62,829 nt of DNA from Candidatus Saccharimonadota bacterium (GTDB taxonomy: Bacteria > Patescibacteriota > Saccharimonadia > Saccharimonadales > 2-12-FULL-41-12). The DNA is taken from contig JACRNE010000002.1 of NCBI GenBank assembly GCA_016219345.1, positions 1 to 62,829 of the forward strand. The letters run 5' to 3'. The notes under the pieces are model-generated. The model was not told where the DNA came from. It saw only the letters and a list, made by a program, of their open reading frames with translations, and did no database searches. Below are positions 9,720 through 62,829 of the stretch, in pieces (positions within the stretch are counted from its first letter, which is position 1; each line of letters begins with the position of its first letter). Made by a program: the position numbers and the translations under genes.

Positions 9720-10631
9720 TTATTGATCTTTCTTGTAGTTGGTGAACTTTACTTTTATCGGGGTAATCCTGAAAACAATATAGGACTCCTTCTCAAGACT
9801 GGAAACTGGTGGCAAACCTATTTTACTTCCATATTTTCGCGGTTTTACAATCTCCGTGAAAACTATATTTTTTACTGTTGGCTGCGATTCTATCTCAGCA
9901 ATACCTTTTATCTGCGCTGTTTTTAAACTGTCCCTGTCATAAACTGTAAACGCAACGTTGGAATTTGCTAAGATATTGTGAGTTTTTTGAGTGTCTGACT
10001 TTGTCACAAAGTAGATAGAATTATTATCAACTATGTAGTGTATGGTTGCTCCATCCAAGCTCCCATCTCTGTTAATTGTCGATAAAACTCCTGTGTCATG
10101 CGAGTTTAAAAACTCAACTGATTCATCATCAAGAGTAATTGGCTTTTTAGATTGATCTTTGTTCATTTTTTTCACACTCCCTCCGTTTTCATGATTCACT
10201 CTACCCTTACTATCCTCAACTGAGTAGCTCTCAACGTATTTTACAAACCTTTTAGCACAAACAAGACTCGCAAACTTCAATGTAAAATCACCCATTCTGG
10301 TGTGAAGTGTAACTGCTGCAAAAGGCCAGGCACTTACATATTTAACGCCTGCCACAATAAAGTATGTAAGCTCATCGACGTTTGTATATCCAGGCTTGTG
10401 ATTAATAAACATAACTTTTTTATCGGTCGCTACAAGCATACCTTCGACCCAATTCAACGGTCCTTTAGAGGTCTCGCTATATCGTCCGTAGACGGCACCA
10501 CCTATGTGTTCGTCCTTATTAATTACCTGCGGTAAATATTTGGCTGTAAATTTTTTTAAAGCAGATTTTGTAAATCCGGCATCTATCAATTCGTCTCTGA
10601 CTCTTTGTTCATGCTTGCTAAGATTACTCAT
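9720..10631 (-). CDS. fusion protein: bacterial PH-like N-domain plus pyridoxamine 5'-phosphate oxidase-like FMN-binding split-barrel
   Basis: C-terminal half FLNSHDTGVLSTINRDGSLDGATIHYIVDNNSIYFVTKSDTQKTHNILANSNVAFTVYD is typical of PNPOx-like proteins. Start trimmed to the ATG at 10629-10631. Confidence 0.6.
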   Translation of the reverse strand: MSNLSKHEQRVRDELIDAGFTKSALKKFTAKYLPQVINKDEHIGGAVYGRYSETSKGPLNWVEGMLVATDKKVMFINHKPGYTNVDELTYFIVAGVKYVSAWPFAAVTLHTRMGDFTLKFASLVCAKRFVKYVESYSVEDSKGRVNHENGGSVKKMNKDQSKKPITLDDESVEFLNSHDTGVLSTINRDGSLDGATIHYIVDNNSIYFVTKSDTQKTHNILANSNVAFTVYDRDSLKTAQIKGIAEIESQPTVKNIVFTEIVKPRKYGSKIGLPPVSSLEKESYIVFRITPIKVKFTNYKKDQ

Positions 10632-10679
10632 ATACATACATTTTACTACTTTTATGGGGTGTAGGACTATATACTGTAA

Positions 10680-11912
10680 ATGATGCAAACACTGATAGTA
10701 CATGGCCGGCAACCAGCGCTAGGCAGAGCTGAACTTGAAATCCTATATGGCGCCGACGTTCTGGAGCCTGTGGGAAATGACGCAACTTTAATCAATCTTG
10801 ATCCAACGTCTATAGATTTTATGCGATTGGGCGGGATGGTTAAATTTTGCAAAGTTTTAACATTTTTAGAGACTACGAATTGGAATGAGATTGAGAAATT
10901 TTTAGTTAATGAAACGCCAAATCATTTTCAGTATCTTGAGTCCGGTAAACTAAAAATTGGACTAAGTGTATATGGTCTAGATACAAATCCCCGACGCATG
11001 CACGCTACCGCGCTAAAACTCAAAAAAGCCGGAAAAGAAGTAGGTAGATCTATCAGGATTATCCCGAATGAGAAGCTGGACCTTAATAGTGCTCAAGTAC
11101 TCTACAATAAATTGACTCAAAAACTAGGATGGGAGCTAGTCTTTGTAAAACACGGCCACAAAACTATTGTTGCTCAGAGTATAGCTGTTCAAGATATCGA
11201 TAGATACGCCGCAAGGGATCAAGAAAGACCATACCGCGATGCTAGAGTCGGTATGCTGCCACCTAAATTAGCTCAGATTATCATCAACTTAGCAGTCGGT
11301 GGTTCAGACGATCCAAAAGACCCCCTCTGTCTACCCAATGGTCAGGGTGAGCCTAAAGACCTGACTGTAATTGATCCGTTTTGTGGAACTGGCGTAATTC
11401 TTCAGGAAGCCACACTTATGAATTACAGGGCTTACGGAACTGATTTAGAGCCAAGAATGGTTGAGTACTCAGAGAAGAACTTAAACTGGCTAAAAAATAA
11501 ATATGAAGACTGGCAAATACAATTCAATGTTGAGCAAGCAGATGCGACCAGCCACACATGGGAAAGAAGCTTAACCTCAAAATCAGTTATTGCCTGCGAG
11601 ACATATTTGGGCAGAGCCTTAACTTCCCTGCCAGATCAAGAAACACTGGCAAAAATTATCAATGATTGCGACACAATTCATAAAAAATTCTTAAAAAACG
11701 TAGCTCGCCAAACAAAACCAGGCTTTAGAATGTGTTTAGCCGTTCCAACCTGGCATACAAAAAATGGTTTCAGGCACCTTAGGACACTTGATTCTCTCGA
11801 GAAAATGGGATACAATCGTGTGAAGTTCAAGTTCTCTTCTAATAACGATTTGATCTACCATAGACCAGGTCAAACAGTTGCCCGAGAACTTGTCGTATTA
11901 GAAAGGTTATAA
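10680..11912 (+). CDS. putative RNA methyltransferase (UPF0020/Trm11-like) with non-canonical motif IV
   Basis: 410 aa; motif I VIDPFCGTGVILQEA. At the position where NPPY/DPPY is expected the sequence reads IACETYLGR. Abuts rpmA (stop directly followed by ATG). Confidence 0.55.
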   Translation: MMQTLIVHGRQPALGRAELEILYGADVLEPVGNDATLINLDPTSIDFMRLGGMVKFCKVLTFLETTNWNEIEKFLVNETPNHFQYLESGKLKIGLSVYGLDTNPRRMHATALKLKKAGKEVGRSIRIIPNEKLDLNSAQVLYNKLTQKLGWELVFVKHGHKTIVAQSIAVQDIDRYAARDQERPYRDARVGMLPPKLAQIIINLAVGGSDDPKDPLCLPNGQGEPKDLTVIDPFCGTGVILQEATLMNYRAYGTDLEPRMVEYSEKNLNWLKNKYEDWQIQFNVEQADATSHTWERSLTSKSVIACETYLGRALTSLPDQETLAKIINDCDTIHKKFLKNVARQTKPGFRMCLAVPTWHTKNGFRHLRTLDSLEKMGYNRVKFKFSSNNDLIYHRPGQTVARELVVLERL

Positions 11913-30931: not shown

Positions 30932-31828
30932 CTATTTATAAAAAGCAATGAAAGTTATGACGAATACAGCCAGCTTGATCAAGAAATCTGTAGAAACATA
31001 CTTGCCCTCTACGTCTAGGTATTGGCTAGTATTTGCGCCAGTCTTAATGTAGCGATATTGGATCAAGGCAATATTTATAAATCCAGTTAGAACTACAGCA
31101 GCAAGTACATAAACATACCAACTAAAGTTTTGTATGCCAAATAATCCTGTTCCTATCAAGCCAGATATCAGGGGTATCCAGGCCAAAAACCCTGTAAATA
31201 AACTTAGGTAGAACAGTGAAAATTGCTTTTGATTGTTTTTATTTTGCGCTTCGGACAGCAGACCCAGAATAGAGGTTACTAGGATTAACCCAGCAATCAT
31301 CTTTAGGGCAGCCATTTCGGTGACACCGCCGAGAACGCTTACGATTTCTAAAGTTAATGCTGATGATATACCAAGAAATATCCATCTTAGAGAAGAAACT
31401 TTGGCGCTGACACCTTTTTCGTAACGACTCCTTAATTTTGTTGCTAGAAGTATCGAGAAGATTGCACTTAAACCAAATACGACTGCTAGAAGATATCTCA
31501 CTTCAATATTTAACACATTTGTAAATGCAGGACCTAGGGTGTCCTCAGTTGCAGCTAATTCATCTTTGGTTGAATGAGCAAACAACAAATTTACAGATGT
31601 ATTTGATAAGAATATTACACTCAAAACAGCAAATCCTAGATAAGCTACAGCCGCAAACATGTTGAACTTATAAAGTTTCTCAAAAGTTACCATTGGTGTG
31701 GCCTTAGCCGTACTTTTTTTAGGTGCTGCAACCTTCTTGCTTGCTGTTTTCTTTTTTGAAGCGCTAGCAGAAGCTGATTTTTTTGTGGTTGTTTTCTTCT
31801 TGGATGAAGTTTTTTTGGCAGTAGCCAT
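30932..31828 (-). CDS. heliorhodopsin-like 7-TM protein with a Lys/Ala/Ser/Thr-rich N-terminal tail
   Basis: Seven predicted helices. By-memory alignment to heliorhodopsin 48C12 shows LYKFN/LQNFN, GLSAIF/GLSALF, LRW/FRW, GLLSE/GWLQE, ALIQYRY/ALVQYLQY and TM7 FLIKLAV/LVAKSAL (Lys285). An SD-like GGGAG lies 9 nt before ATG 31828. An alternative start at Met46 (31693) would give a 253-aa protein. Confidence 0.55.
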   Translation of the reverse strand: MATAKKTSSKKKTTTKKSASASASKKKTASKKVAAPKKSTAKATPMVTFEKLYKFNMFAAVAYLGFAVLSVIFLSNTSVNLLFAHSTKDELAATEDTLGPAFTNVLNIEVRYLLAVVFGLSAIFSILLATKLRSRYEKGVSAKVSSLRWIFLGISSALTLEIVSVLGGVTEMAALKMIAGLILVTSILGLLSEAQNKNNQKQFSLFYLSLFTGFLAWIPLISGLIGTGLFGIQNFSWYVYVLAAVVLTGFINIALIQYRYIKTGANTSQYLDVEGKYVSTDFLIKLAVFVITFIAFYK

Positions 31829-31855
31829 CTATAATATCTCCCTTTACTTTCCCCG

Positions 31856-31885
31856 TTGCCAGCTACTATAACACAAGAGTAATAT
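31856..31885 (+). promoter_or_regulatory. sigma70-type promoter placed for a leaderless msrA mRNA
   Basis: TTGCCA (31856-31861), 18 nt, TAATAT (31880-31885), then only 6 nt before ATG 31892; no SD. Confidence 0.5.
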
Positions 31886-31891
31886 AAAATC

Positions 31892-32421: not shown

Positions 32422-33954
32422 CTATTTTTCGAGCCTTAGTCGACTTATCAGCCAATCCCTGGGCAACATACTAAGAAACCAGCCGGCACGCGGACCAGAA
32501 CTTTTCCCTATTATCACCTTATACAAAACCTCAAAAAGTTCTTTTGGCTTTAAATCTATAGTGTCTTTAAAATCATAAATTGCTTTATGGAACCACTCAC
32601 CATCAGCTTCTGCTGGTGCTGACTGTATTTTTTCTGCCAATTCCTTTAGGTACTTCTTCTCTTCTTCATTGAATTCCGACTCTTCAATAGTATCTCTAAG
32701 ATCAAACTTAACGTCCTCGGGCGCCCATTTGTCTAGCCAGTTATCAATAAAATTCAGTTCATTTAAGATAATATCTTTTTGCATTGTGGCAGTGTCTTGA
32801 TGCTCTGTTCTGGCAATCACCTCTATAGTTTTTTCGGGATTTTTAAGCGTCGCCTGATAGCTGGCTACCAAATGCGTGAAAGGCACATTACTGACTGTCT
32901 GCTTATCAATCCCATAGGTACAAAGCTCTAATAAATGCTTTTCCTGTTCTGATTTATCCTGCTTAGCTACCAGCTCACTAAACTCATCAACCAGCCTCAT
33001 AAGAGTCGGACCTTCATCAAAGAATAGTTGCTTATCAGGCGATAGCTTAAGCAAGAAATACCAAACAACCTCAGGTGGTAAAACCTGTAATAGTTCAGCT
33101 GCCGTTATGGTATCTCCTGCGCTTTTACTCATCTTCTTTGTCTCACCTGAACGATTTATAAAATGATATGGGATTGGCAGGGGCGCTTTACCCCCAAAGA
33201 CTTTTTCAACGATTTGTTTCCCGGTATCGTATGATCCACCCTTTGTGGCATGATCCCTACCGAAAGGTTCAACGTCCACTCCTAGCAGCCACCATCTAGC
33301 AGCCCAATCAATTCGCCAGCTTAATTTAACTTCACCGTCTTTATAACTTGTTGACTGATCTTTACTGTCTTTGTCTTTATAGAAAACCTCTTTTTTGTCT
33401 TTATCAATGCTCACGAACTGACGATTTTTTAGATAGCCTTCTTCCATAATTTGCACCGGCGACCACTGTTTATCAAGCTCACGACCCGAAACATCCTCTA
33501 GAATTTTTCTAATTCCATCAATATTATCTAAGGCTTTTTCTATCGCCGGAACGAAGAACCCGCCCCTATATTCCTCATGTGCACGAACTACTTCCATCTC
33601 CAAGTTCATAGCTTTAGCGGCACTTAAAAGATCATTCAAGAAATAATCGGCATATGATTGATCCGAGCCATCAGGCGCGGGAATATCACATAGCGGCATA
33701 CCCAAATATTTACTAAATTCCTCTGGCACGCCTAAGGGAACTTTTCTAAAAACATCCAAATCATCGGCGACATGTATGTGCCTACTGTCTCGTCCGCGAC
33801 GCTTAATCTCACGAGCGATAACCTCAGCTGTCAGAACCTCGCGCAAAGTACCTAAATGATACGTCCCCGATGGCGAAACACCAGAGGAAACCACAATTTC
33901 GCCTTCAGGACGAAGAGCAATCACCTCATCTACAACCTTATTCAACCACTGCAT
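32422..33954 (-). CDS. lysK: lysine--tRNA ligase, class I (archaeal-type)
   Basis: SSGVSPSGTYHLGTLREV (HIGH-type), DDLDVFRKVP, and KMSKS; 510 aa. Confidence 0.9.
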   Translation of the reverse strand: MQWLNKVVDEVIALRPEGEIVVSSGVSPSGTYHLGTLREVLTAEVIAREIKRRGRDSRHIHVADDLDVFRKVPLGVPEEFSKYLGMPLCDIPAPDGSDQSYADYFLNDLLSAAKAMNLEMEVVRAHEEYRGGFFVPAIEKALDNIDGIRKILEDVSGRELDKQWSPVQIMEEGYLKNRQFVSIDKDKKEVFYKDKDSKDQSTSYKDGEVKLSWRIDWAARWWLLGVDVEPFGRDHATKGGSYDTGKQIVEKVFGGKAPLPIPYHFINRSGETKKMSKSAGDTITAAELLQVLPPEVVWYFLLKLSPDKQLFFDEGPTLMRLVDEFSELVAKQDKSEQEKHLLELCTYGIDKQTVSNVPFTHLVASYQATLKNPEKTIEVIARTEHQDTATMQKDIILNELNFIDNWLDKWAPEDVKFDLRDTIEESEFNEEEKKYLKELAEKIQSAPAEADGEWFHKAIYDFKDTIDLKPKELFEVLYKVIIGKSSGPRAGWFLSMLPRDWLISRLRLEK

Positions 33955-46488: not shown

Positions 46489-47241
46489 CTAGACGGTTGC
46501 GTCACCCCAGCGAGAGAAGACAATTATTACAAAAACTATCGCAAACATTGTTAGGATAATCTGTTGCCTAATAGTGGATGAAAGACGGTCAGTCTGCTCC
46601 AAGTAGTAGAGACCGGCAAATCCGAAAGCTAACGAGCTAACTAAAAGAGCAGGCTGTGCAATAGGGCCCACAAATAGTAGCCAATGTCCCAAAACCCACA
46701 TAATTGCAGCCGCAAAGAACGCCCAGATTGATGAAATAAGCCTACCGTGTCTTTCGTCAAAAATATTCAGGAAATGCCTTGCGCAGAAATAACTGATGGA
46801 CCAAAAGGCCAGAACATAAGCTCCTAAAATAGCTCCTTCCAGTGCCAGGAAAATACTAACAAGCCCCAGAGTATTAGCTATTACGGCCTGGGCCGACACC
46901 ATACCAACACTAGTTCCAGGCTTTATATAGAGCAGCCAAATTTCAAACAGGATCATCCATACAATCTGTATCCACATCGTAGACGTAGATGCCATAAAGA
47001 CTAAGAAACTCACACTCGCGATAATATCTACAGCGTTAGTTCTAATGTGCGCTATCCAGTGCCTAGGATGGAGCGCAAACATTCGCCACTTACTGAGCAG
47101 TAGGATTGCCAGTGCGATCAAGTTAAAATCAAGCCGTACTAAAACCAGTATAAGGGGCGGGAGTATAGCGATAATACTCAAATGAAATGCATGGGCAAAT
47201 CCCCTGCCAGGTCTGATTTTGTCGAAAATATATTTAACCAT
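46489..47241 (-). CDS. hypothetical multi-pass membrane protein
   Basis: 250 aa with about 7 hydrophobic helices; no motif recognised. Confidence 0.5.
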   Translation of the reverse strand: MVKYIFDKIRPGRGFAHAFHLSIIAILPPLILVLVRLDFNLIALAILLLSKWRMFALHPRHWIAHIRTNAVDIIASVSFLVFMASTSTMWIQIVWMILFEIWLLYIKPGTSVGMVSAQAVIANTLGLVSIFLALEGAILGAYVLAFWSISYFCARHFLNIFDERHGRLISSIWAFFAAAIMWVLGHWLLFVGPIAQPALLVSSLAFGFAGLYYLEQTDRLSSTIRQQIILTMFAIVFVIIVFSRWGDATV

Positions 47242-54204: not shown

Positions 54205-57200
54205 CTAAGGTAGAGGGCAGTTGGGGTAGTTGGATTGGCGGCATGGGGTGTCGAGTGGTTGTTGCTGACCACCAATAAAGGTTTTACCATGAATCAATCT
54301 CTTTCCTGGATCACTAGTAAATACGAAGGATAGATCTGTTATAGTCGGACCCCTAGATACATCTTCAGGGAAGCCCCAAGCATTTTGGCTGTCTATAGTT
54401 AAATTCAGGAAGAAATAGCGTGCACAACTAGTGTTACTACCTGATCCATCTTTTGGTGTGTAAGTTGAAGGTACCCCAAGAGAAACAGCTCCAGCATTTG
54501 TATTCTGACCCCAAGTTGTCATCGATGCGCACGAACTGCCAGCACCGCTGGTTGCTGATTTATAATTCAGATACCATCTGGCACCGTCGGCATTATCCAG
54601 ACCGTTAGCTACAAACATTGATGGAAATACATCTGTGTCTGCGTCGATCGCTAATGAATAGTTCGCTATGTGAGGCTGGAATTGCAAAGTAGCATGAACT
54701 ACCCTGTTAGCCCCTGTGAATGCCGCTCCGGTGCAATCGTAACCACCCAGCATGTATGCTCTGCCTCCGTTATACGCAACTGTTGGAGCATATCTAGCGG
54801 TAGTAAATCTAACATTTGTTTGCGACCAATAACCCAAAGATCCGTTAGCATTAATCGGTATAACGTAGGTGTTATTTGTGCAAGTAGTAGAGGCCGAACG
54901 TCCACCAAATATATATAAGAAGCCATTACTGGCAAAACCATCACCTTGCCTTATACGCTGAGGCAGCTTTTCTGTTGCTGACCAGGAGCCAATCGTACCA
55001 TCGCTAGCTATAGCTGCGTATTGAGCGTCAAGAAGATAGTTAGTTCCATCAAACCCGCCTAATATATAGAGGAAACTGCCATATGCAATAGCCACGTGGC
55101 CACTACGTGCAGTGGTAAAGGCTGTCATACCGGTGCTAGTCCAAGCTGAGCCAATATCGCCTCCGCTTGACAGAGATGGACTAGCATAGATTACATTTGA
55201 AGCGGCACTTGAACCATCGTTACCGCCAGTCACATAAATTCGATTATTCCAGACCGTGGAGCTATGCATGGTTCTACCAGCTGGTAGTCCGTTAGTGGCA
55301 CTTGCCCAAGTACTAATATCTCCGTTACTAGCGGGGGTCCCATAGTAAACATCTGTAACTCCAGCAGTCGATCCAGAAGTTTGACCGCCAATAAAGTAAA
55401 GTGTGCCACCGACTACCTCCATCTGTCCATGAGCCCGCACTGCGGGCAGCGTACTGTCTGTAGTATTTGCCCAGGTGCCTACGGTTCCATCATCGTTAAG
55501 TAGTGCAAACTGCGTATTATCAGTTGCGGTTGTACAGTCTGTGCCAGTTGTACAACCTCCAGCTATGTATAAATAGCCGTTATGTACGGCGGATGCAGCA
55601 GCATATCTATCGGTTGCAAATGTATTACCGCTCGAAGTAAATGATGCCGGTGAAGCACTATAGTTGTTATAAACTTGCACTTTTTCATTAACACCACTTT
55701 GGGCACTACAGCTTCCCGGCGGAGCACCAGACGTACAGCCACCAACTATATAAATATAGCCATTGGCAGCTGCTGCTCCTTCATTCCAGCGAGCCGTAAT
55801 GGTAACTGTTGAGGTCGTGAACGTGTTAAGTTCTCCCGTAGTTTGATCGATCTTGGCATATTGAATATCGCTTAAAGTGCTTGGGCCACTACCATCATGA
55901 CCGCCTATCACGTATATGTAGCCATTCACTCCAACAGCAACTCCGCGCCGCCTTAAGCTGCCCCCCAGATCTGAAGTTGTATCCCAGCCCCCAGTGGCAT
56001 TCCCATTGTCTGCCCTAACTATATTTCCACTAGAATTAATCGTGGCAAAAAATACTGTACGCGTTTGGGCATCACCGCTCTCGTTGGCACCACCAGCTAG
56101 GTAAATATACCCCGCGTAGTATATACCGGCCATCAATCCCAACCCTTCAGTCAGCTGTAGTTGGTTAGTTATAGCGCAGCTACTAGTTGCTCCGTCCGAA
56201 TGAGCAATATCACATTTATAAACGGTGCTTATGTAGTTTGAACAACCGATGCCGGTCCCACCAGTCCAACAACCACCAATAATGTATAGATTACCTGCAG
56301 TAGCACTATTTGATCTAGTGATAACATACATATGCCCATAGCCGTTGACTGGTGCACCGGTGTCAACATCTGGTAATACATCAGCTTGATTTGTCCAACT
56401 TCCCAGAGAGCCATCACTATTAAAAGAAGCTCTGAAAATATTGCGTACATAGTCAGTACCATTGGCACCTCCAACCACATATACATAGTTGTTGTATACA
56501 GAAACACCAGCGGCACCGATGCCCGTCGTACCGTTAAGCGTATCCGTGCTGTCAACGGTCCAAGAGCCTATGGATCCATCAGCATTTATCGGGGCATACC
56601 CTGTGTTATCACTCATGGTTGTGCATCCATTGTTAGCACAACCACCGATATTATAGATGTAACCATTATTTATAACTACGCCCATTGCTGTACGCCCAAC
56701 CTGCCCGGCACCAGCTCCAATTGTCGGCTGAGAGTTCTCAGTTTCTATAGGACCTATATCCCCATCATTATTGATGCGACCATAGAAAGTAGTCTCAAGT
56801 GTTGTAGTGGAGTTAGTGCAATTATCCGTTGTCATGCCACTACATCCACCTATCTGATAAATCGTGTTCCTCCAACCGACCAGTCCGTAACCAACTTTTG
56901 TTGTTGTTACTCCTGACACTGAAGTCCAGTCTGTTATGGATCCATCTGCGTTAATACTAGCTAGTTTAAGAGTATCGCTCGCAATAACAGTACTACAGTT
57001 AGTGGCCGTTAGTGCACTACATCCCCCAGTAACGTACATATACCCTCCCCAGATGGTTGCAAAAGAACCACCAAAAGTCATGCGCGCGCTAGGAAGAGCC
57101 GTAGTCGTTACCCAGGAGCTGGCCAGGCTCCCAGTGCTAGTGATCTTTATATAGCTGACTCCTGTTTGTGCAGTTGTGCCATTGGCGCCACCGACCACAT

Positions 57201-58830
57201 ATAAGTAGCCGTTGTACTGGGCAGACGAGTGTCCCCACCTGGCTGAAGCAAGCGCAGTCATGCCGGTGGTAGACCAAGCGCCCAAACTACCGTCTGGATT
57301 AATATCTGCATACTCAACGGTTGTGACACCCCCGGTAGCGGCATTTGTCTGCCCACCCATTAGGTACATTCTGTTGTTATACGCAATCGCCGAGGAATGA
57401 CTTCTCTCTGTACTCAGAGCACTACTTGAATCAAGAGTCCAGCTAATCGGTTCTCCATTCGCTCCAATCTTGGCATAATAAACATTAGTTGAACGCGCGC
57501 CGCCGCTGTCTTTACCGCCCATTACATATAGATAGCCATTGTATGCTGCCACACTCATAGAATCTCTCGCCGCTGGCAGGTCATAGGCAGTTCCTGTACA
57601 CCAATTCGTACAAGCTCCCGCTCCTGGGTTCGGCGCAGTTAGCGTGTAATTTGATGGGTCAAACTTCGCCCAATAGACATTGCTAACTCTGGTGGAACCA
57701 CTGTTACCTCCAATCACATAGACATATCCCCCCGCTACAACTGTGCCGTGATTCCATCTATCGGCTGGTAATGATGTAGTCCCAGTCCAGCTAGGAATTC
57801 GGGCGCCCGTAACAACACCTTTTTGGATAAGTTCGTTGGTAACATCGAAATCAACATTAGACTCATTATTACCGCGCATAAATTTTTGAGCTGTTTCTAC
57901 ATAAACGCTAGGGTCAATGCTCAAAGGATAACTAGCAGTTTTCATATTTTCTGCAACCACTTTTAGGTTGTTGCCATTTAACTCATAGTGAATTTTTACT
58001 TGTGAAGCCGTTTTATTTGTTTCTTTAACTACGGGAGCCGGTATGGTAAATAATAATTTGGTTTTATCGGCTTTTTCTCTAGCTTTTTGGAGTAGCGCTG
58101 CATCCTTGTCGCTACCCGTTGCTACATCGCCATTCAGAGGCAATTCTGAACCATATACCCCTATAGAACCGTCTTTTTCTAGCTTAGTTTCAAGGCCATC
58201 TTCAAGCTTTATCTCATATTCATACTCTACCCTGTCTCTGTTATATTTCTCTAAGACTATATCCTCCTTGACTCCCGTAGCTTGAGAAGTATAGACTAAA
58301 TATCCAAGATTTTGTTTAAGCTTATAGAACACTTGATTTTCTTGTTGCTTACCCTCTTGCAGCCTAAATTTAGGTATTAGTTGAAAATCTAGATCATTAA
58401 TAGGATCTTTAACTATCATGCCTTTTTGGGGATCCTTACTCAAAGAAGCAACTATCCGCGGACTGCCCGTATTTTCTGCCTTAACGTCTGAGTCCTGCTC
58501 TGGGCTATATGAAGAATTGTACTCAAAGCTATTTTTGCTTTGATCATATTTTAATAGTTCGGAAAACTTCTTGCTTGTTTTTGGTAGTAGATCTATTGCA
58601 CCTTGACTGAGCTGGTGCGGCTTTTCGTTTATAAAAGGCTGGAAAGCAGCTATTAGAACAGTTGCTATAATTAATATTGCAATAAAACCCGAATAGAGTC
58701 TAAACATCAAAGATTTTTTAGGCTTTGTCATCTCTAGGCTTTTTACGGTCAATCTGCCCATACGTTTTGCAGCTGCCCTTGAGGCCAATAAAGCTCTTGT
58801 ATTAGTTCTTTTTAGTTTTATATCATCCAT
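54205..58830 (-). CDS. giant N-terminally anchored surface protein with about 18 Kelch-type blades (three predicted 6-bladed propellers)
   Basis: 1541 aa; TM helix FIAILIIATVLIAAF near the N-terminus. I count 18 occurrences of the blade signature (N)GY[ILV]Y[VI]xGG ... DG[ST][IL]G[ST]W. Confidence 0.8.
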   Translation of the reverse strand: MDDIKLKRTNTRALLASRAAAKRMGRLTVKSLEMTKPKKSLMFRLYSGFIAILIIATVLIAAFQPFINEKPHQLSQGAIDLLPKTSKKFSELLKYDQSKNSFEYNSSYSPEQDSDVKAENTGSPRIVASLSKDPQKGMIVKDPINDLDFQLIPKFRLQEGKQQENQVFYKLKQNLGYLVYTSQATGVKEDIVLEKYNRDRVEYEYEIKLEDGLETKLEKDGSIGVYGSELPLNGDVATGSDKDAALLQKAREKADKTKLLFTIPAPVVKETNKTASQVKIHYELNGNNLKVVAENMKTASYPLSIDPSVYVETAQKFMRGNNESNVDFDVTNELIQKGVVTGARIPSWTGTTSLPADRWNHGTVVAGGYVYVIGGNSGSTRVSNVYWAKFDPSNYTLTAPNPGAGACTNWCTGTAYDLPAARDSMSVAAYNGYLYVMGGKDSGGARSTNVYYAKIGANGEPISWTLDSSSALSTERSHSSAIAYNNRMYLMGGQTNAATGGVTTVEYADINPDGSLGAWSTTGMTALASARWGHSSAQYNGYLYVVGGANGTTAQTGVSYIKITSTGSLASSWVTTTALPSARMTFGGSFATIWGGYMYVTGGCSALTATNCSTVIASDTLKLASINADGSITDWTSVSGVTTTKVGYGLVGWRNTIYQIGGCSGMTTDNCTNSTTTLETTFYGRINNDGDIGPIETENSQPTIGAGAGQVGRTAMGVVINNGYIYNIGGCANNGCTTMSDNTGYAPINADGSIGSWTVDSTDTLNGTTGIGAAGVSVYNNYVYVVGGANGTDYVRNIFRASFNSDGSLGSWTNQADVLPDVDTGAPVNGYGHMYVITRSNSATAGNLYIIGGCWTGGTGIGCSNYISTVYKCDIAHSDGATSSCAITNQLQLTEGLGLMAGIYYAGYIYLAGGANESGDAQTRTVFFATINSSGNIVRADNGNATGGWDTTSDLGGSLRRRGVAVGVNGYIYVIGGHDGSGPSTLSDIQYAKIDQTTGELNTFTTSTVTITARWNEGAAAANGYIYIVGGCTSGAPPGSCSAQSGVNEKVQVYNNYSASPASFTSSGNTFATDRYAAASAVHNGYLYIAGGCTTGTDCTTATDNTQFALLNDDGTVGTWANTTDSTLPAVRAHGQMEVVGGTLYFIGGQTSGSTAGVTDVYYGTPASNGDISTWASATNGLPAGRTMHSSTVWNNRIYVTGGNDGSSAASNVIYASPSLSSGGDIGSAWTSTGMTAFTTARSGHVAIAYGSFLYILGGFDGTNYLLDAQYAAIASDGTIGSWSATEKLPQRIRQGDGFASNGFLYIFGGRSASTTCTNNTYVIPINANGSLGYWSQTNVRFTTARYAPTVAYNGGRAYMLGGYDCTGAAFTGANRVVHATLQFQPHIANYSLAIDADTDVFPSMFVANGLDNADGARWYLNYKSATSGAGSSCASMTTWGQNTNAGAVSLGVPSTYTPKDGSGSNTSCARYFFLNLTIDSQNAWGFPEDVSRGPTITDLSFVFTSDPGKRLIHGKTFIGGQQQPLDTPCRQSNYPNCPLP

Positions 58831-59001: not shown

Positions 59002-62000
59002 TTATTGATTCGTATACGTGAAGTCCAGATTCTCTACATAAACATTTCCGCTACTCTTCGCGGTTACATTAATCTTGAATATTACATAGTCCCCGCCAAC
59101 AAATCCGCATGCAGTTTCGTCTCCACCAAAGGAAGTTTGTTGCCAGGTATTAGCTGTGTTATTTATGGTGGTCGCACTTCCGCAGGAGACAATAGTGCCA
59201 CCTCCAACATTCTTCCTAAAGACCTGCAACGTTGCATTGGCGTTTGTAGTGCTATCGGTCAATGCGGTTAACTTGATAGTGTTAGCGTCATTAAATCCAC
59301 TGAACGTGGAAGGCAGCTTGTATGTAACATATATTCCGTAAGTCTGATCAGTACCTTGAGGTGAAGTCCATTTATAGAAGTTTCGTGCTTCACCACTAGC
59401 ACAAAGGGTGCCGACGACCAAAACACTTGCCTGATTCGAACAAAAGTCCGCAGTCAAGGTTCCGACACCCGTGCCATTTAATACCGCTCCGGTATATTCT
59501 GGGGTAAGCGTAATAATGTTGTTGGGGGCAGATCCGCAAGCGCCCCATGCCGCTGTGCCGTTACGATTTTCGTAACACTGTAATTTTCCTTGAGTAGAAT
59601 CATAGTACATTGAACCAAGATATGCAGTCTGGCCGGTTCCGAACGGAGCACTAGCAGCAGCATCTAGCTGGAATACAGTGGTTGATGTGCCAGTTCCCGT
59701 GCTATTACCTATCTTTACTTTATTAACAGAAGTTGTATCTACGCTGAACATTGTGTCAGCACTGCTAGCACTCTGTACCTGGAAGGCTGTAGCTGAGTTC
59801 GTCGAGCTCTTAATTGTAGCCTTGCCGGTCGTGACAAATTCACCACCAACAGATAAGCCATTAGCTATGTCGGCACCACCAGCAACCTGCAAATAACCGA
59901 CTATGTTAGTGTTACCAGCAGTTAAACTACCCCCTGAGCCATTTCCATCAGCACCATTGCTATTTGAATAGCTTGTAAGATCAAGGTTTCCACCAAATTT
60001 TATGCGTTGAGTCGAAGTGTAATAAACCGTATTAGCGTAGTTTGCGTTATTTGTAAACGCTCCAGATATACCGCCAGGTGCGTAAATGTAGCCATTATAC
60101 ATGGCTCCTCCACCAAAGGAGTATCTATTTGCCGGCAATGAGCTTGCTGCATTTGTCCAAGCGCCCAAAGTTCCGTCAGTATTTAGTCTTGAGTATTCAA
60201 CGCTTGCATATGCAGTTGCACCATCTGTTCCAGTTGCGCCACCAATAGCATATACGTAGCCGTTTGATACAGCAGCACCGTGAAAAAACCTCGACGTATT
60301 AAGGTTAGAGTCACTGTCGGTAGACCATGCTGCTGTACCGGTTGAAGGATCAGCATTGATTCGTGCATAATAAGTAGCAGCATAAGATGTAGCTCCGTTA
60401 CCACCACCATAAACATATAGATATCCATTTGCTGACACTGCGCCAATACCATAACGGACAGCTGGTAGTAAGTCTGATTCTGTGGACCATGAACTAATCG
60501 TACCGTCAGCATTTGGTCTCGCATAGAATATTTCATCTTGCGAGTTTGTATTATCTGATCCACCTATTAGATATATGTATCCGTTTGCAGAAGTAACTGC
60601 AGCATCCCATCGTCTGTCACCTGCTACCGATCCAAGATCAGCTGTTGTAGCCCAAGACCCAACAGATCCGTCAGCATTAAGCTTAGCATATCTAACAGTC
60701 CTTAGTGCGTTTACGTTATCTGTTGTTCCACCAATTACATACAAATAACCATTAACGACTATGGCTGAGTGTCTACCAAGAGCAGCTGGAAGTGGGTTAC
60801 TGGCTGAAGTCCAGCTGTCTAAGGTGCCGTCCGTTTTTATTTTCGCGTAACGTATAGTAGTTTGGAAGCCAGGTGTTGGTGATCCTGAGTAACCACCTAT
60901 TATATAGATATATCCGTTGTGAGTTACAGTCGCATGAGCACCCAAAGTAATGCTGCTTGGTATGGCAGTTGTGGTTGCCCAAGCCTGAAGCTCAGGGCTA
61001 TTGTTTCCACCAATTGTAATTACATTGTTTACACCAGAGATAGAGTTATCAACACTGAAGTAAGTAGCAGTTCCTGCAGCATTCTGTATCTGGAAGGCTG
61101 TAGTTGAACCTGTAGATCCACCAGACTTAACAGTTACACCAGCGCTTCCGCCCTGAATTGTGGTGTTGCTAGTCAATGCAGTTGAACCAACAGTTACTAA
61201 GTTAGATCCCGATCCCGTTGGCGTACCAGTACCTATGTTTATGGTCTTACCGCCAGCTACAGTTGTGTTGCCTGTTCCTATATTAAGAGTGTCTATTCCA
61301 ACTGTGTTGCTGCCTGTTCCGAAGTTAAGAGTTCTAGCTGCATCGGCCGCAACGTTACCTATGTCTATTTGAGTAACGCGATCATTGTTACCCATTAGCA
61401 GTGAGGCTGTACCATTGGTACCAGCTGCTCCTGAGAGGATATTAACTATGGTAGAGCTAGAAGCATTAGACATACTACCGTTACCAATGCTTATGGTTTG
61501 AGTAGAACTGGCTCCAGGGGTAGCGCTACCAATGCTAATGGTATTTGTAGCAGTAGATTGACCTATTGTTATCTGGCCAGTTGTGCCAGTGCCGCCGATG
61601 ACAGTTGTCCCAGCGACTGCTGCAGTGTTGATAGCGACGTTATTATTGCTAACTGTTCCTATATTGATGGTGCCACTAGCACCTGCTTGGATGTTTACTG
61701 CGCTAGAGCCGGTGCCGCCCTGAATGGTGGTTTGAGTAGCCGCAGTGGTATTACCTATTCCAACAGTTGTGGCATTAGTGAAACCTAGTCTTACTGTTCC
61801 AGCGCCCGTGGTATCTAGATCTAGAGTATTTGTACCAGTTGCTCGGATGTTTAAGCTGCCTGGGTTAGTTATTGTGGCACCAGCGGCACCAAGGTTGATA
61901 GTGCTGGCTGCACCGAAGGCATTGATGGTGGTGGCGGTAGTATTAAAGACGCTGAATGTAGTTGACGCTGTGTAGACTCCAGGAGAAGTTGAGTTAACAC

Positions 62001-62829
62001 CGAATATAGTTGTTGGAACACCACCATTCACTACCCCCACAGTAAAGGCATTGGTTGAGGTAAATCCATCTGATGACTGAATAGCAAATCCGGCATTTGC
62101 GCCAACAGCTAGTAGGTTTAGGTTATTCTCATCTTTAAGCTGGAAGATATCTGCAGTTTGAGCAGTTGTTCCTTGTATGACTGCACCTACGCTACCCGCA
62201 GAGGCTGACTTTATATTAAAGTTGGCATTTGTCTGCTGGGTTGTAGCATTCTGTATATAGTTACCTGTAGAAAATGCTACGTTTCCTGCAACTCTCCAGT
62301 ATCCAGGTGAAGCAGCATCATAAACCAAAGTTATGCTGCCACCTGCAGCCAGAGTTATGTTAGCTCCAGTACCTGTGATAATCTGGTTACCTGCGCTGGA
62401 GCTACCGGAGTTGTTGGATATTGTTGCGCTTTGGCTGGCTGCATTAACAATAGTCAGGATTTCCCCATCCCTGCCATTTGCTATGCCGGTTATTGTCTGT
62501 GCAGATGCACCTGTTAGACGTACCAGTGATACTTCGCCAAAGTTAACATTATTAGATGATCCAGTGGTGGAGAAGTCCGTCCCTCGCTTAAACGCAGCAG
62601 ATCCTGTAAGGTCAAAATTAGCTCCCACATCAAGACTATCATCTGTCTTCAAAGTATTGTTTGCAGACCTATAAAGATTTGTATCTGTACCGAAGGTTAT
62701 TCCACCAGCTGCAGTGGTAGTATTTGTTCCTATAGTTAATAAGCTGTTTGCTGGAGTTGCACCTATACCAACCATACTGTTAGTGGTGTCTGCTATAAAT
62801 AAGTTGCTAGTTCCAGCCGCATTTTGAAT
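59002..62829 (-). CDS. giant surface protein, 5'-truncated by the window edge: G/T/N/A-rich beta-helix-like repeats, 6 Kelch blades, and a C-terminal Cys-containing domain
   Basis: The track ORF starts at Met 62775, but the frame stays open to nt 62829 (IQNAAGTSNLFIADTTNSMVGIGATP...). Kelch blades lie at about 60000-60985 (GYIYIIGG, GYLYVIGG, GYIYLIGG, GYLYVYGG, GYVYAIGG, GYIYAPGG). Confidence 0.8.
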   Translation of the reverse strand: MQNAAGTSNLFIADTTNSMVGIGATPANSLLTIGTNTTTAAGGITFGTDTNLYRSANNTLKTDDSLDVGANFDLTGSAAFKRGTDFSTTGSSNNVNFGEVSLVRLTGASAQTITGIANGRDGEILTIVNAASQSATISNNSGSSSAGNQIITGTGANITLAAGGSITLVYDAASPGYWRVAGNVAFSTGNYIQNATTQQTNANFNIKSASAGSVGAVIQGTTAQTADIFQLKDENNLNLLAVGANAGFAIQSSDGFTSTNAFTVGVVNGGVPTTIFGVNSTSPGVYTASTTFSVFNTTATTINAFGAASTINLGAAGATITNPGSLNIRATGTNTLDLDTTGAGTVRLGFTNATTVGIGNTTAATQTTIQGGTGSSAVNIQAGASGTINIGTVSNNNVAINTAAVAGTTVIGGTGTTGQITIGQSTATNTISIGSATPGASSTQTISIGNGSMSNASSSTIVNILSGAAGTNGTASLLMGNNDRVTQIDIGNVAADAARTLNFGTGSNTVGIDTLNIGTGNTTVAGGKTINIGTGTPTGSGSNLVTVGSTALTSNTTIQGGSAGVTVKSGGSTGSTTAFQIQNAAGTATYFSVDNSISGVNNVITIGGNNSPELQAWATTTAIPSSITLGAHATVTHNGYIYIIGGYSGSPTPGFQTTIRYAKIKTDGTLDSWTSASNPLPAALGRHSAIVVNGYLYVIGGTTDNVNALRTVRYAKLNADGSVGSWATTADLGSVAGDRRWDAAVTSANGYIYLIGGSDNTNSQDEIFYARPNADGTISSWSTESDLLPAVRYGIGAVSANGYLYVYGGGNGATSYAATYYARINADPSTGTAAWSTDSDSNLNTSRFFHGAAVSNGYVYAIGGATGTDGATAYASVEYSRLNTDGTLGAWTNAASSLPANRYSFGGGAMYNGYIYAPGGISGAFTNNANYANTVYYTSTQRIKFGGNLDLTSYSNSNGADGNGSGGSLTAGNTNIVGYLQVAGGADIANGLSVGGEFVTTGKATIKSSTNSATAFQVQSASSADTMFSVDTTSVNKVKIGNSTGTGTSTTVFQLDAAASAPFGTGQTAYLGSMYYDSTQGKLQCYENRNGTAAWGACGSAPNNIITLTPEYTGAVLNGTGVGTLTADFCSNQASVLVVGTLCASGEARNFYKWTSPQGTDQTYGIYVTYKLPSTFSGFNDANTIKLTALTDSTTNANATLQVFRKNVGGGTIVSCGSATTINNTANTWQQTSFGGDETACGFVGGDYVIFKINVTAKSSGNVYVENLDFTYTNQ

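Follow-up and report, generated by a model that had tools for sequence, protein, structure and literature searches.

The 62,829-nt stretch of DNA examined here (contig JACRNE010000002.1, positions 1 to 62,829 of the forward strand, from assembly GCA_016219345.1 of a Candidatus Saccharimonadota bacterium; hereafter the window) carries on its minus strand, at 30932..31828, a complete open reading frame (ORF) of 298 amino acids plus a stop codon (ATG at 31828, stop codon at 30932-30934), the product of which is placed in the heliorhodopsin (HeR) family by hidden Markov model (HMM) search, profile-profile alignment and predicted fold. In this protein the counterion of the Schiff base appears to have been displaced from helix C to helix G rather than to be missing, and at orthologous loci the Schiff-base lysine itself is exchanged for arginine under unchanged purifying selection. 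The gene is best explained as a vertically inherited HeR orthologue of Saccharimonadales, in a clade specific to these bacteria, with a rebuilt Schiff-base region, and is as such a variant of a known family and not a new kind of system. As to its function, we give roughly an even chance to an HeR that uses a helix-G counterion, is able to bind scavenged retinal, and fulfils a conserved scaffold or regulatory role that survives the change from Lys to Arg.

The Pfam model PF18761 (Heliorhodopsin) matched residues 52-279 of the protein with 79.8 bits (gathering cut-off 26.7), and a phmmer search against the PDB returned heliorhodopsins only (1.8e-13 for TaHeR and 4e-11 for 48C12), with no non-HeR chain matched at E-values of up to 10. 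Profile-profile alignment to canonical HeRs with hhalign yielded a probability of 99.95%. An AlphaFold2 (AF2) model, made with 54 homologues as input, reached a mean pLDDT of 85.7, exceeding 90 across most of the membrane core, and displayed seven helices together with the long AB beta-hairpin typical of HeRs and a short BC helix. When this model was submitted to Foldseek, the ten top structural matches were all HeRs (TaHeR, 6is6, at a TM score of 0.90 and an rmsd of 2.2 Å), while type-1 rhodopsins scored TM values of about 0.5. On the basis of AF2 (core pLDDT >90) and Foldseek, the seven-transmembrane (7-TM) core extends over residues 47-298 (30935..31690, minus strand) and would be composed of TM1 (residues 49-73), the AB beta-hairpin (78-109), TM2 (110-129), the BC helix (133-141), TM3 (146-166), TM4 (172-195), TM5 (204-230), TM6 (237-263) and TM7 (267-295). 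Topology prediction counted about 25 Lys and Arg residues on the side of the N-terminus and the BC, DE and FG loops versus 2 on the opposite side, a distribution that fits the N-terminus-in topology of HeRs. A preliminary description of this stretch, made from the letters alone, had proposed a heliorhodopsin-like 7-TM protein that aligns over its full length, and both the Pfam score and the phmmer alignments, in which all of the motif pairs it quoted are present, agree with that proposal.

The residue columns of the Schiff-base region were assigned by four alignments (phmmer pairwise, MAFFT of 56 sequences, MAFFT of 199 sequences, and hhalign profile-profile), and the coordinates given earlier for the codons of Met46, F151 and K285 were rechecked by arithmetic. 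All four alignments placed K285 (30974..30976; this and the residues below are on the minus strand) in the column of the Schiff-base lysine, K241 in 48C12, as the preliminary description had it, and F151 (31376..31378) in the counterion column, corresponding to Glu107 of 48C12 and Asp85 of bacteriorhodopsin (BR). Shortly ahead of F151 lies R148-W149 (31382..31387), the invariant RW of helix C that equals R104-W105 of 48C12. Four residues before the lysine on TM7, D281 (30986..30988) occupies the column of Ser237 of 48C12 and Asp212 of BR. In the 48C12 structure, Glu107 and Ser237 both form direct hydrogen bonds with the Schiff base, and the equivalence of Ser237 with BR Asp212 and of Glu107 with BR Asp85 was drawn in the same study (PMC7049168). 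The earlier statement that the counterion Glu is absent thus stands for the helix-C column, but it overlooked D281 on helix G, which we propose to be the displaced counterion or ion-pair partner of K285.

Compared with 48C12 and TaHeR (PF18761; 6su3 and 6is6), the window protein shares the 7-TM fold, the AB beta-hairpin, the BC helix, the predicted N-terminus-in orientation, the TM7 lysine and the RW on TM3, and it also keeps the equivalents of N16, Y92, E149, Y226, E230, W173, F206 and Q213. It differs from them in having Phe for Glu107 and Asp for Ser237 (DxxxK for SxxxK), and in the residues that line the Schiff-base cavity. The two cavity histidines of 48C12, H23 and H80, correspond in all four alignments to Y63 and S125 (the Tyr and Ser already read from the sequence in the preliminary description), while Asn101 aligns to S145 and Tyr108 to L152. 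An outer-half pair of Glu161 and Lys176 and a polybasic N-terminal tail of 45 residues further set the window protein apart from both structures.

Because the identity of the ORF protein to characterised HeRs is only ~22%, misalignment is conceivable a priori, and the odd columns might then reflect either an alignment artefact in an ordinary HeR or a decaying pseudogene. We find this barely credible. The four methods, including the profile-profile one, concur on the key columns, which rules out a misaligned counterion or Lys column, and the R148-W149 anchors beside F151 are invariant. Moreover, the frame is intact in about 50 clusters, and the dN/dS of about 0.08 rules out a pseudogene.

These clusters came from a search of 5.8 billion proteins, which delivered a clade of ~50 clusters with 37-97% identity, the few named ones stemming from metagenome-assembled genomes (MAGs) of Candidatus Saccharimonadales or 'Parcubacteria'. 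Scanning the GTDB species representatives with alignment A3 revealed five loci only, all in Saccharimonadales-type MAGs; a genome-collection scan with the single protein as query yielded no loci, and alignment A2 was too divergent to be usable as a scan query. Across 51 clade members, the Glu107 column holds Phe in 41, Leu in 6, Ser in 2 and Ile in 2, and is acidic in none, while the Ser237 column is acidic in 47 (Asp in 44, Glu in 3). The Lys column reads Lys in 42 members, Arg in 5, and Gly, Ser, Asn or Met in one each. In all four members of the latter kind the acid at 281 is lost as well (replaced by His, Asn, Ser or Gln), and in the five members with Arg the Asp at 281 is kept. The cavity columns have changed throughout the clade (H23 to Asn, Ser or Tyr; H80 to Ser; N101 to Ser; Y108 to Thr, Met or Leu), and the Pro172 column holds Ala in all members. 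The pocket residues W149, W217, F250 and Q257, as well as G/A189, are conserved, and decay of the pocket (Lys or Arg at 257) is mainly found in members without any base at 285.

The TM7 motif of the window protein is DFLIK, with Asp in the Ser237 column. In a survey of freshwater Candidate Phyla Radiation (CPR) bacteria, SLVAK, SLIAK and SFVAK were the commonest TM7 motifs of HeRs, and SxxxK as opposed to DxxxK was used to separate HeRs from type-1 rhodopsins (PMC9166423). The motifs DFLIK, DFLIR, DYLVK and DFLVK are not present in the supplementary tables of that survey, and our literature search found no description of this clade or of HeRs that combine DxxxK with a hydrophobic helix-C site. 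Screens for HeRs that demand SxxxK, as that survey did, or the Glu would miss or misclassify the clade.

The relation between the two acidic sites was followed in a wider set of relatives. When 1.84 billion representatives were searched exhaustively with phmmer, 536 relatives emerged at E-values of up to 1e-3, and the best 150 of these were combined with the first set into a MAFFT alignment of 199 sequences, in which the counts given here (in 48C12 numbering) cover 198 representatives. Among the 160 representatives with Lys or Arg at site 241, an acid was found at site 107 only in 75, at site 237 only in 72, at both sites in 3 and at neither in 10, an exclusion with a Fisher value of 2.5e-30, uncorrected for phylogeny. 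Parsimony on a neighbour-joining (NJ) tree required at least 18 changes at site 107 and at least 13 at site 237. An acid at site 237 was seen in 75/160 representatives with Lys or Arg at 241 and in 0/38 of those without. One carboxylate thus accompanies the positive charge, on either helix but almost never on both. We accordingly take D281 for the counterion, or ion-pair partner, in a displaced position, and on these sequence comparisons the counterion would seem to have moved from helix C to helix G rather than to have disappeared. Lys was absent from 53 of the 198 representatives (15 with Arg, 38 with another residue), corresponding to at least 27 independent losses on the NJ tree; a report of Lys-less heliorhodopsins was not found in the literature searched. 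The relatives P0054-P0200 form a large radiation with polybasic 'MATTKK...' tails, in which the Schiff-base columns are highly variable (DNK, DSK, ESK, DGK, YDK and others).

A combination of helix-C Phe and helix-G Asp is known from schizorhodopsins, the first microbial rhodopsins described with Phe at BR position 85, in which Asp184 (BR Asp212) is the putative counterion (PMC7148096). The D184N mutant of SzR1 does not form a pigment. As in SzR1 and SzR4, the window protein has F151 at BR position 85, D281 at position 212 and K285 at position 216. Unlike schizorhodopsins, however, it is an HeR in sequence and predicted fold, its predicted topology is opposite (N-in versus N-out), and the Glu that is essential to schizorhodopsins at BR position 96 is absent (I162), the window residue E161 being located at position 95. 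As judged from sequence and model, the resemblance is local and convergent.

This resemblance might nevertheless indicate a light-driven or light-gated proton transporter, in which protons would run from the cytoplasmic side at R148 toward the outer side at E161, as an outward pump energising the cell. Next to helix-C and helix-G residues like those of the inward-pumping schizorhodopsins (PMC7148096), such a reading can draw on E161 (31346..31348; Val117 in 48C12), a clade-conserved carboxylate in the outer third of TM3, since the outer half of this helix is wholly hydrophobic in canonical HeRs (PMC7049168). It can also draw on viral HeRs with additional glutamates, which are reported to transport protons (PMC9448325). 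However, E161 sits one residue off BR position 96, and it is conserved together with K176 (31301..31303), a clade-conserved Lys near the outer end of TM4 that in one subclade is replaced by K225 on TM5, at positions where canonical HeRs are hydrophobic. This co-occurrence suggests that E161 and K176/K225 make up a structural pair, and both points weaken E161 as a schizorhodopsin-like proton carrier. Moreover, Arg variants under purifying selection cannot pump, and the protein belongs to the schizorhodopsins neither by sequence nor by fold. We therefore consider proton transport by this protein highly improbable. The broader proposal that HeRs with this Phe/Asp/Lys set constitute a new functional class, in which the inward-pump chemistry of schizorhodopsins, set in the inverted topology, would pump protons outward or open a proton path under light, likewise seems improbable to us.

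The Arg variants themselves were informative. On the NJ tree the clade falls into two groups, the larger of which keeps Lys in 34 of its 35 members and has Arg in none, while the subgroup of the window protein (n = 15) comprises 7 members with Lys, 5 with Arg and 3 with another residue. The nine Lys-less orthologues among the 51 clade members are P0003, P0005, P0008, P0016, P0032, P0009, P0014, P0021 and P0031. The Arg variants P0003 and P0005 are located at the same syntenic locus as the window gene, and the codons for this Arg (CGC and CGA) differ from AAG or AAA at two or more positions. This shared locus and codon distance, together with the occurrence of Arg in five independent clusters, rule out paralogues or sequencing errors as its source. 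No compensating Lys was seen elsewhere in the TM helices of the Arg variants. The dN/dS of the HeR gene amounted to 0.076-0.095 and was alike for Lys-Lys, Lys-Arg and Arg-Arg pairs, close to the range of the neighbouring prephenate dehydrogenase gene (0.03-0.13). Equal purifying selection at the same locus indicates that the Arg orthologues are functional, and this in turn implies that the conserved role of the orthologous group is independent of the Schiff base. The exchange of Lys and Arg in the nearest orthologues thereby lends real weight to a light-independent core function, and some of what the protein does may not involve light. On the other side of the tree, the near-exclusive Lys in the larger group and the conserved pocket argue that retinal binding is ancestral and that it is probably still frequent. 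Photoactivity of the window protein appears plausible.

These considerations can be combined into a tentative mechanism. The helix-C Glu and the His-lined cavity have been lost, and an Asp has been gained one turn ahead of the helix-G Lys (D281-x3-K285), where it would neutralise the positive charge of residue 285. With Lys there, as in the window protein, scavenged all-trans retinal could in chemical terms be bound, D281 serving as its counterion. At the cytoplasmic face the protein would then work as a slow photoreceptor or regulator, and its 45-residue tail would dock to an anionic partner, be it acidic lipids, nucleic acid or a protein. Light, where used, would be a modulating input on this scaffold or regulator function and not the function itself.

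Much of the same evidence would also suit a fully retinal-independent descendant, i.e. a structural or regulatory membrane protein that would never bind a chromophore and in which a buried intrahelical salt bridge of D281 and K285 stabilises the 7-TM scaffold, and this we regard as possible though rather unlikely. Such a protein would explain why Lys and Arg are swapped at orthologous loci with purifying selection unchanged, and why the acid at 281 disappears only where the base at 285 is gone too, the pattern that a buried charge pair should produce. It also accords with the repeated loss of Lys among the 198 aligned HeR relatives, with the loss of His, Asn and Tyr from the Schiff-base cavity, with the soil origin of three of the five GTDB species that carry the clade, and with the position of the gene in a stable housekeeping block without signalling or carotenoid genes beside it. 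Precedents are found among rhodopsin homologues that lack retinal, namely Rh-noK, FArhodopsins and haloarchaeal opsins (PMC10308929). The nine Lys-less orthologues resemble these (Rh-noK, the freshwater FArhodopsins and the haloarchaeal opsin-like proteins) in that a scaffold is selected without the Schiff-base Lys, but the precedents are type-1 proteins, and the window protein keeps K285. A salt bridge, moreover, should accept Arg freely, yet Lys prevails in the larger subclade and in the clade overall, the pocket is conserved and decays mainly where the base is lost, and the window protein itself has Lys.

An HeR with a helix-G counterion and access to scavenged retinal is therefore the reading that we prefer, although several observations weigh against it. 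The lability of Lys in the subgroup of the window protein is what would be expected of a purely structural salt bridge. The Schiff-base cavity, which in canonical HeRs is filled with water and thought to accept the proton, has been dismantled in the clade through the loss of its His, Asn and Tyr. Three of the five GTDB species with the clade are soil MAGs of the SMAG catalogue (PMC10640626), where light may be scarce. The ORF reached 77.8 bits with the NCBIfam equivalog model for HeR (NF038020), under its cut-off of 100 bits. Finally, the role and binding partner of the tail are guesses, and the adjacency of the neighbouring msrA gene, described below, is possibly mere synteny.

The tail itself (residues 1-45; 31694..31828, minus strand) is rich in Lys, Ala, Ser and Thr, starts with MA-x-TAKK, and contains 15 Lys or Arg residues and no Asp or Glu. 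Residues 1-40 had pLDDT values below 50 in the AF2 model and appear disordered. The tail had been described as preceding the core and as cytoplasmic by HeR topology, and the predicted charge distribution across the membrane concurs with this. Met46 (31691-31693) had been put forward as an alternative start, but conservation begins at M1 (M1, A2, A4 and K6 reach 90% conservation or more in ~50 homologues) and a Shine-Dalgarno-like sequence, AAGGGAGA (31837..31844, minus strand), presents an AAGGGAG motif 9 nt upstream of the ATG at 31828. Both findings rule out Met46 as the start and show that the tail is translated. At a homologous locus (L012, 3001-3897 of JAHWKM010000005.1), a tblastn match covers query residues 1-297, while the deposited protein P0016 (263 aa) starts later; its annotated start probably cuts off the polybasic tail.

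Almost all clade members carry such a tail, with 10-18 Lys or Arg and nearly no acidic residues, and so do most of the 198 relatives in the alignment, irrespective of the chemistry of their Schiff-base site. Since it is also found on canonical His/His/Glu/Ser/Lys HeRs (P0052, P0160 and P0198), as well as on Asp-counterion types, the tail must be older than the counterion change. Only 1 of the 61 window ORFs encodes a tail of this kind, which rules out that proteins of this organism carry polybasic tails in general. With the tail alone as query, no PDB match was found, and Pfam matches were only sub-threshold and of low complexity. At least ten types of N-terminal extension have been recorded on HeRs, of which only the MORN and zinc-ribbon ones are characterised (Bulzu et al. 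2021, PMC8612252). Like MORN-HeR and Znf-HeR, the window protein joins a cytoplasmic N-terminal extension to an HeR core, but its extension is a disordered Lys-rich tail and not a folded domain. The tail may anchor the protein electrostatically to acidic lipids or nucleic acid, dock a partner, or determine the topology. That the tail is common to relatives of differing Schiff-base chemistry points to a shared cytoplasmic interaction.

The housekeeping block in which the gene resides reads ProRS, GreA, LysRS, msrA, HeR, (RsmE), prephenate dehydrogenase, chorismate mutase/prephenate dehydratase, aminotransferase IV, PD-(D/E)XK, SerRS, S30AE and SecA. Most of it is kept at loci where the HeR is only 42-54% identical; the aromatic-amino-acid genes are absent in L005. 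The immediate neighbour of the HeR gene in the window is msrA (peptide methionine sulfoxide reductase, PF01625; 31892..32419, plus strand), from which it is separated by a divergent intergenic region of 63 bp (31829..31891). In 11 of 12 loci (the set L001-L007 and L011-L015) msrA adjoins the HeR-like gene, mostly in divergent orientation and co-directionally in L005; it is missing at L010, and at L011 one gene is inserted between the two. A dedicated partnership with MsrA could not be distinguished from conserved synteny, and no paper linking HeR and MsrA was found in the literature searched. The LysRS at the shared syntenic site is of class I (PF01921) in the window (32422-33954) and at most loci, and of class II (PF00152) in L005 (3948-5459).

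Synteny also connects forms with different chemistry. The canonical ESK-type HeR P0052 and the Lys-less WNC-type P0053 have the same TrmA-like gene downstream, followed at the P0053 locus by RsmE, PD-(D/E)XK and, further on, a gene with a class-II aminoacyl-tRNA synthetase core domain (PF00587) and S30AE, the PF00587 gene holding the position that SerRS has at other loci. By virtue of these shared neighbours, chemically different forms look like positional orthologues derived from a canonical HeR.

As the preliminary description had already remarked, no gene for retinal biosynthesis is visible in the window. Pfam scans of 20 window ORFs (the unassigned ones plus two flanking ones) revealed no rhodopsin, Blh or carotenoid gene, the other ORFs having been assigned by synteny or by reading, so that the survey is not exhaustive. 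Saccharibacteria with rhodopsins have no blh; uptake of external retinal has been proposed for them, and retinal added in vitro is bound by their type-1 rhodopsins (PMC9296517). For that reason the lack of retinal genes in the window is uninformative. A 250-aa ORF at 46489-47241 (minus strand), by reading apparently a multi-pass membrane protein with several His residues, had no Pfam match and was compared to the small, His-rich Blh-type membrane dioxygenases without a match.

Elsewhere in the window, two very large ORFs of 1541 and 1257 aa lie at its end (54205-58830 and 59002-62775, minus strand). A 632-aa ORF beside them gave a sub-threshold Ig-like (Big_13) match, and the two giant ORFs may encode surface proteins. 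At 9720-10712 (minus strand), a 330-aa ORF has a weak bacterial PH-like region at its N-terminus and also contains a PNPOx-like FMN-binding domain. No tRNA genes and no Rfam families at gathering score were detected across the 62.8-kb window. The GC skew is negative in all 2-kb bins save the last (60001-62000, +0.03), and nearly all genes are on the minus strand.

The function of heliorhodopsins is still poorly understood. A counterion that has left helix C for helix G while the HeR fold is retained would offer a test of how far the photochemistry of HeRs relies on Glu107 and on the cavity lined by His. If the improbable case of an outward pump or proton path were true, Saccharimonadales would gain a second route to light energy. 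The Lys/Arg polymorphism at equally constrained syntenic orthologues implies a scaffold function that is independent of covalently bound retinal, and it could be used to find that function. Should the radiation of tail-bearing HeRs, with its many losses of Lys, indeed be mainly light-independent, it would provide a long-sought clue to the role of heliorhodopsins.

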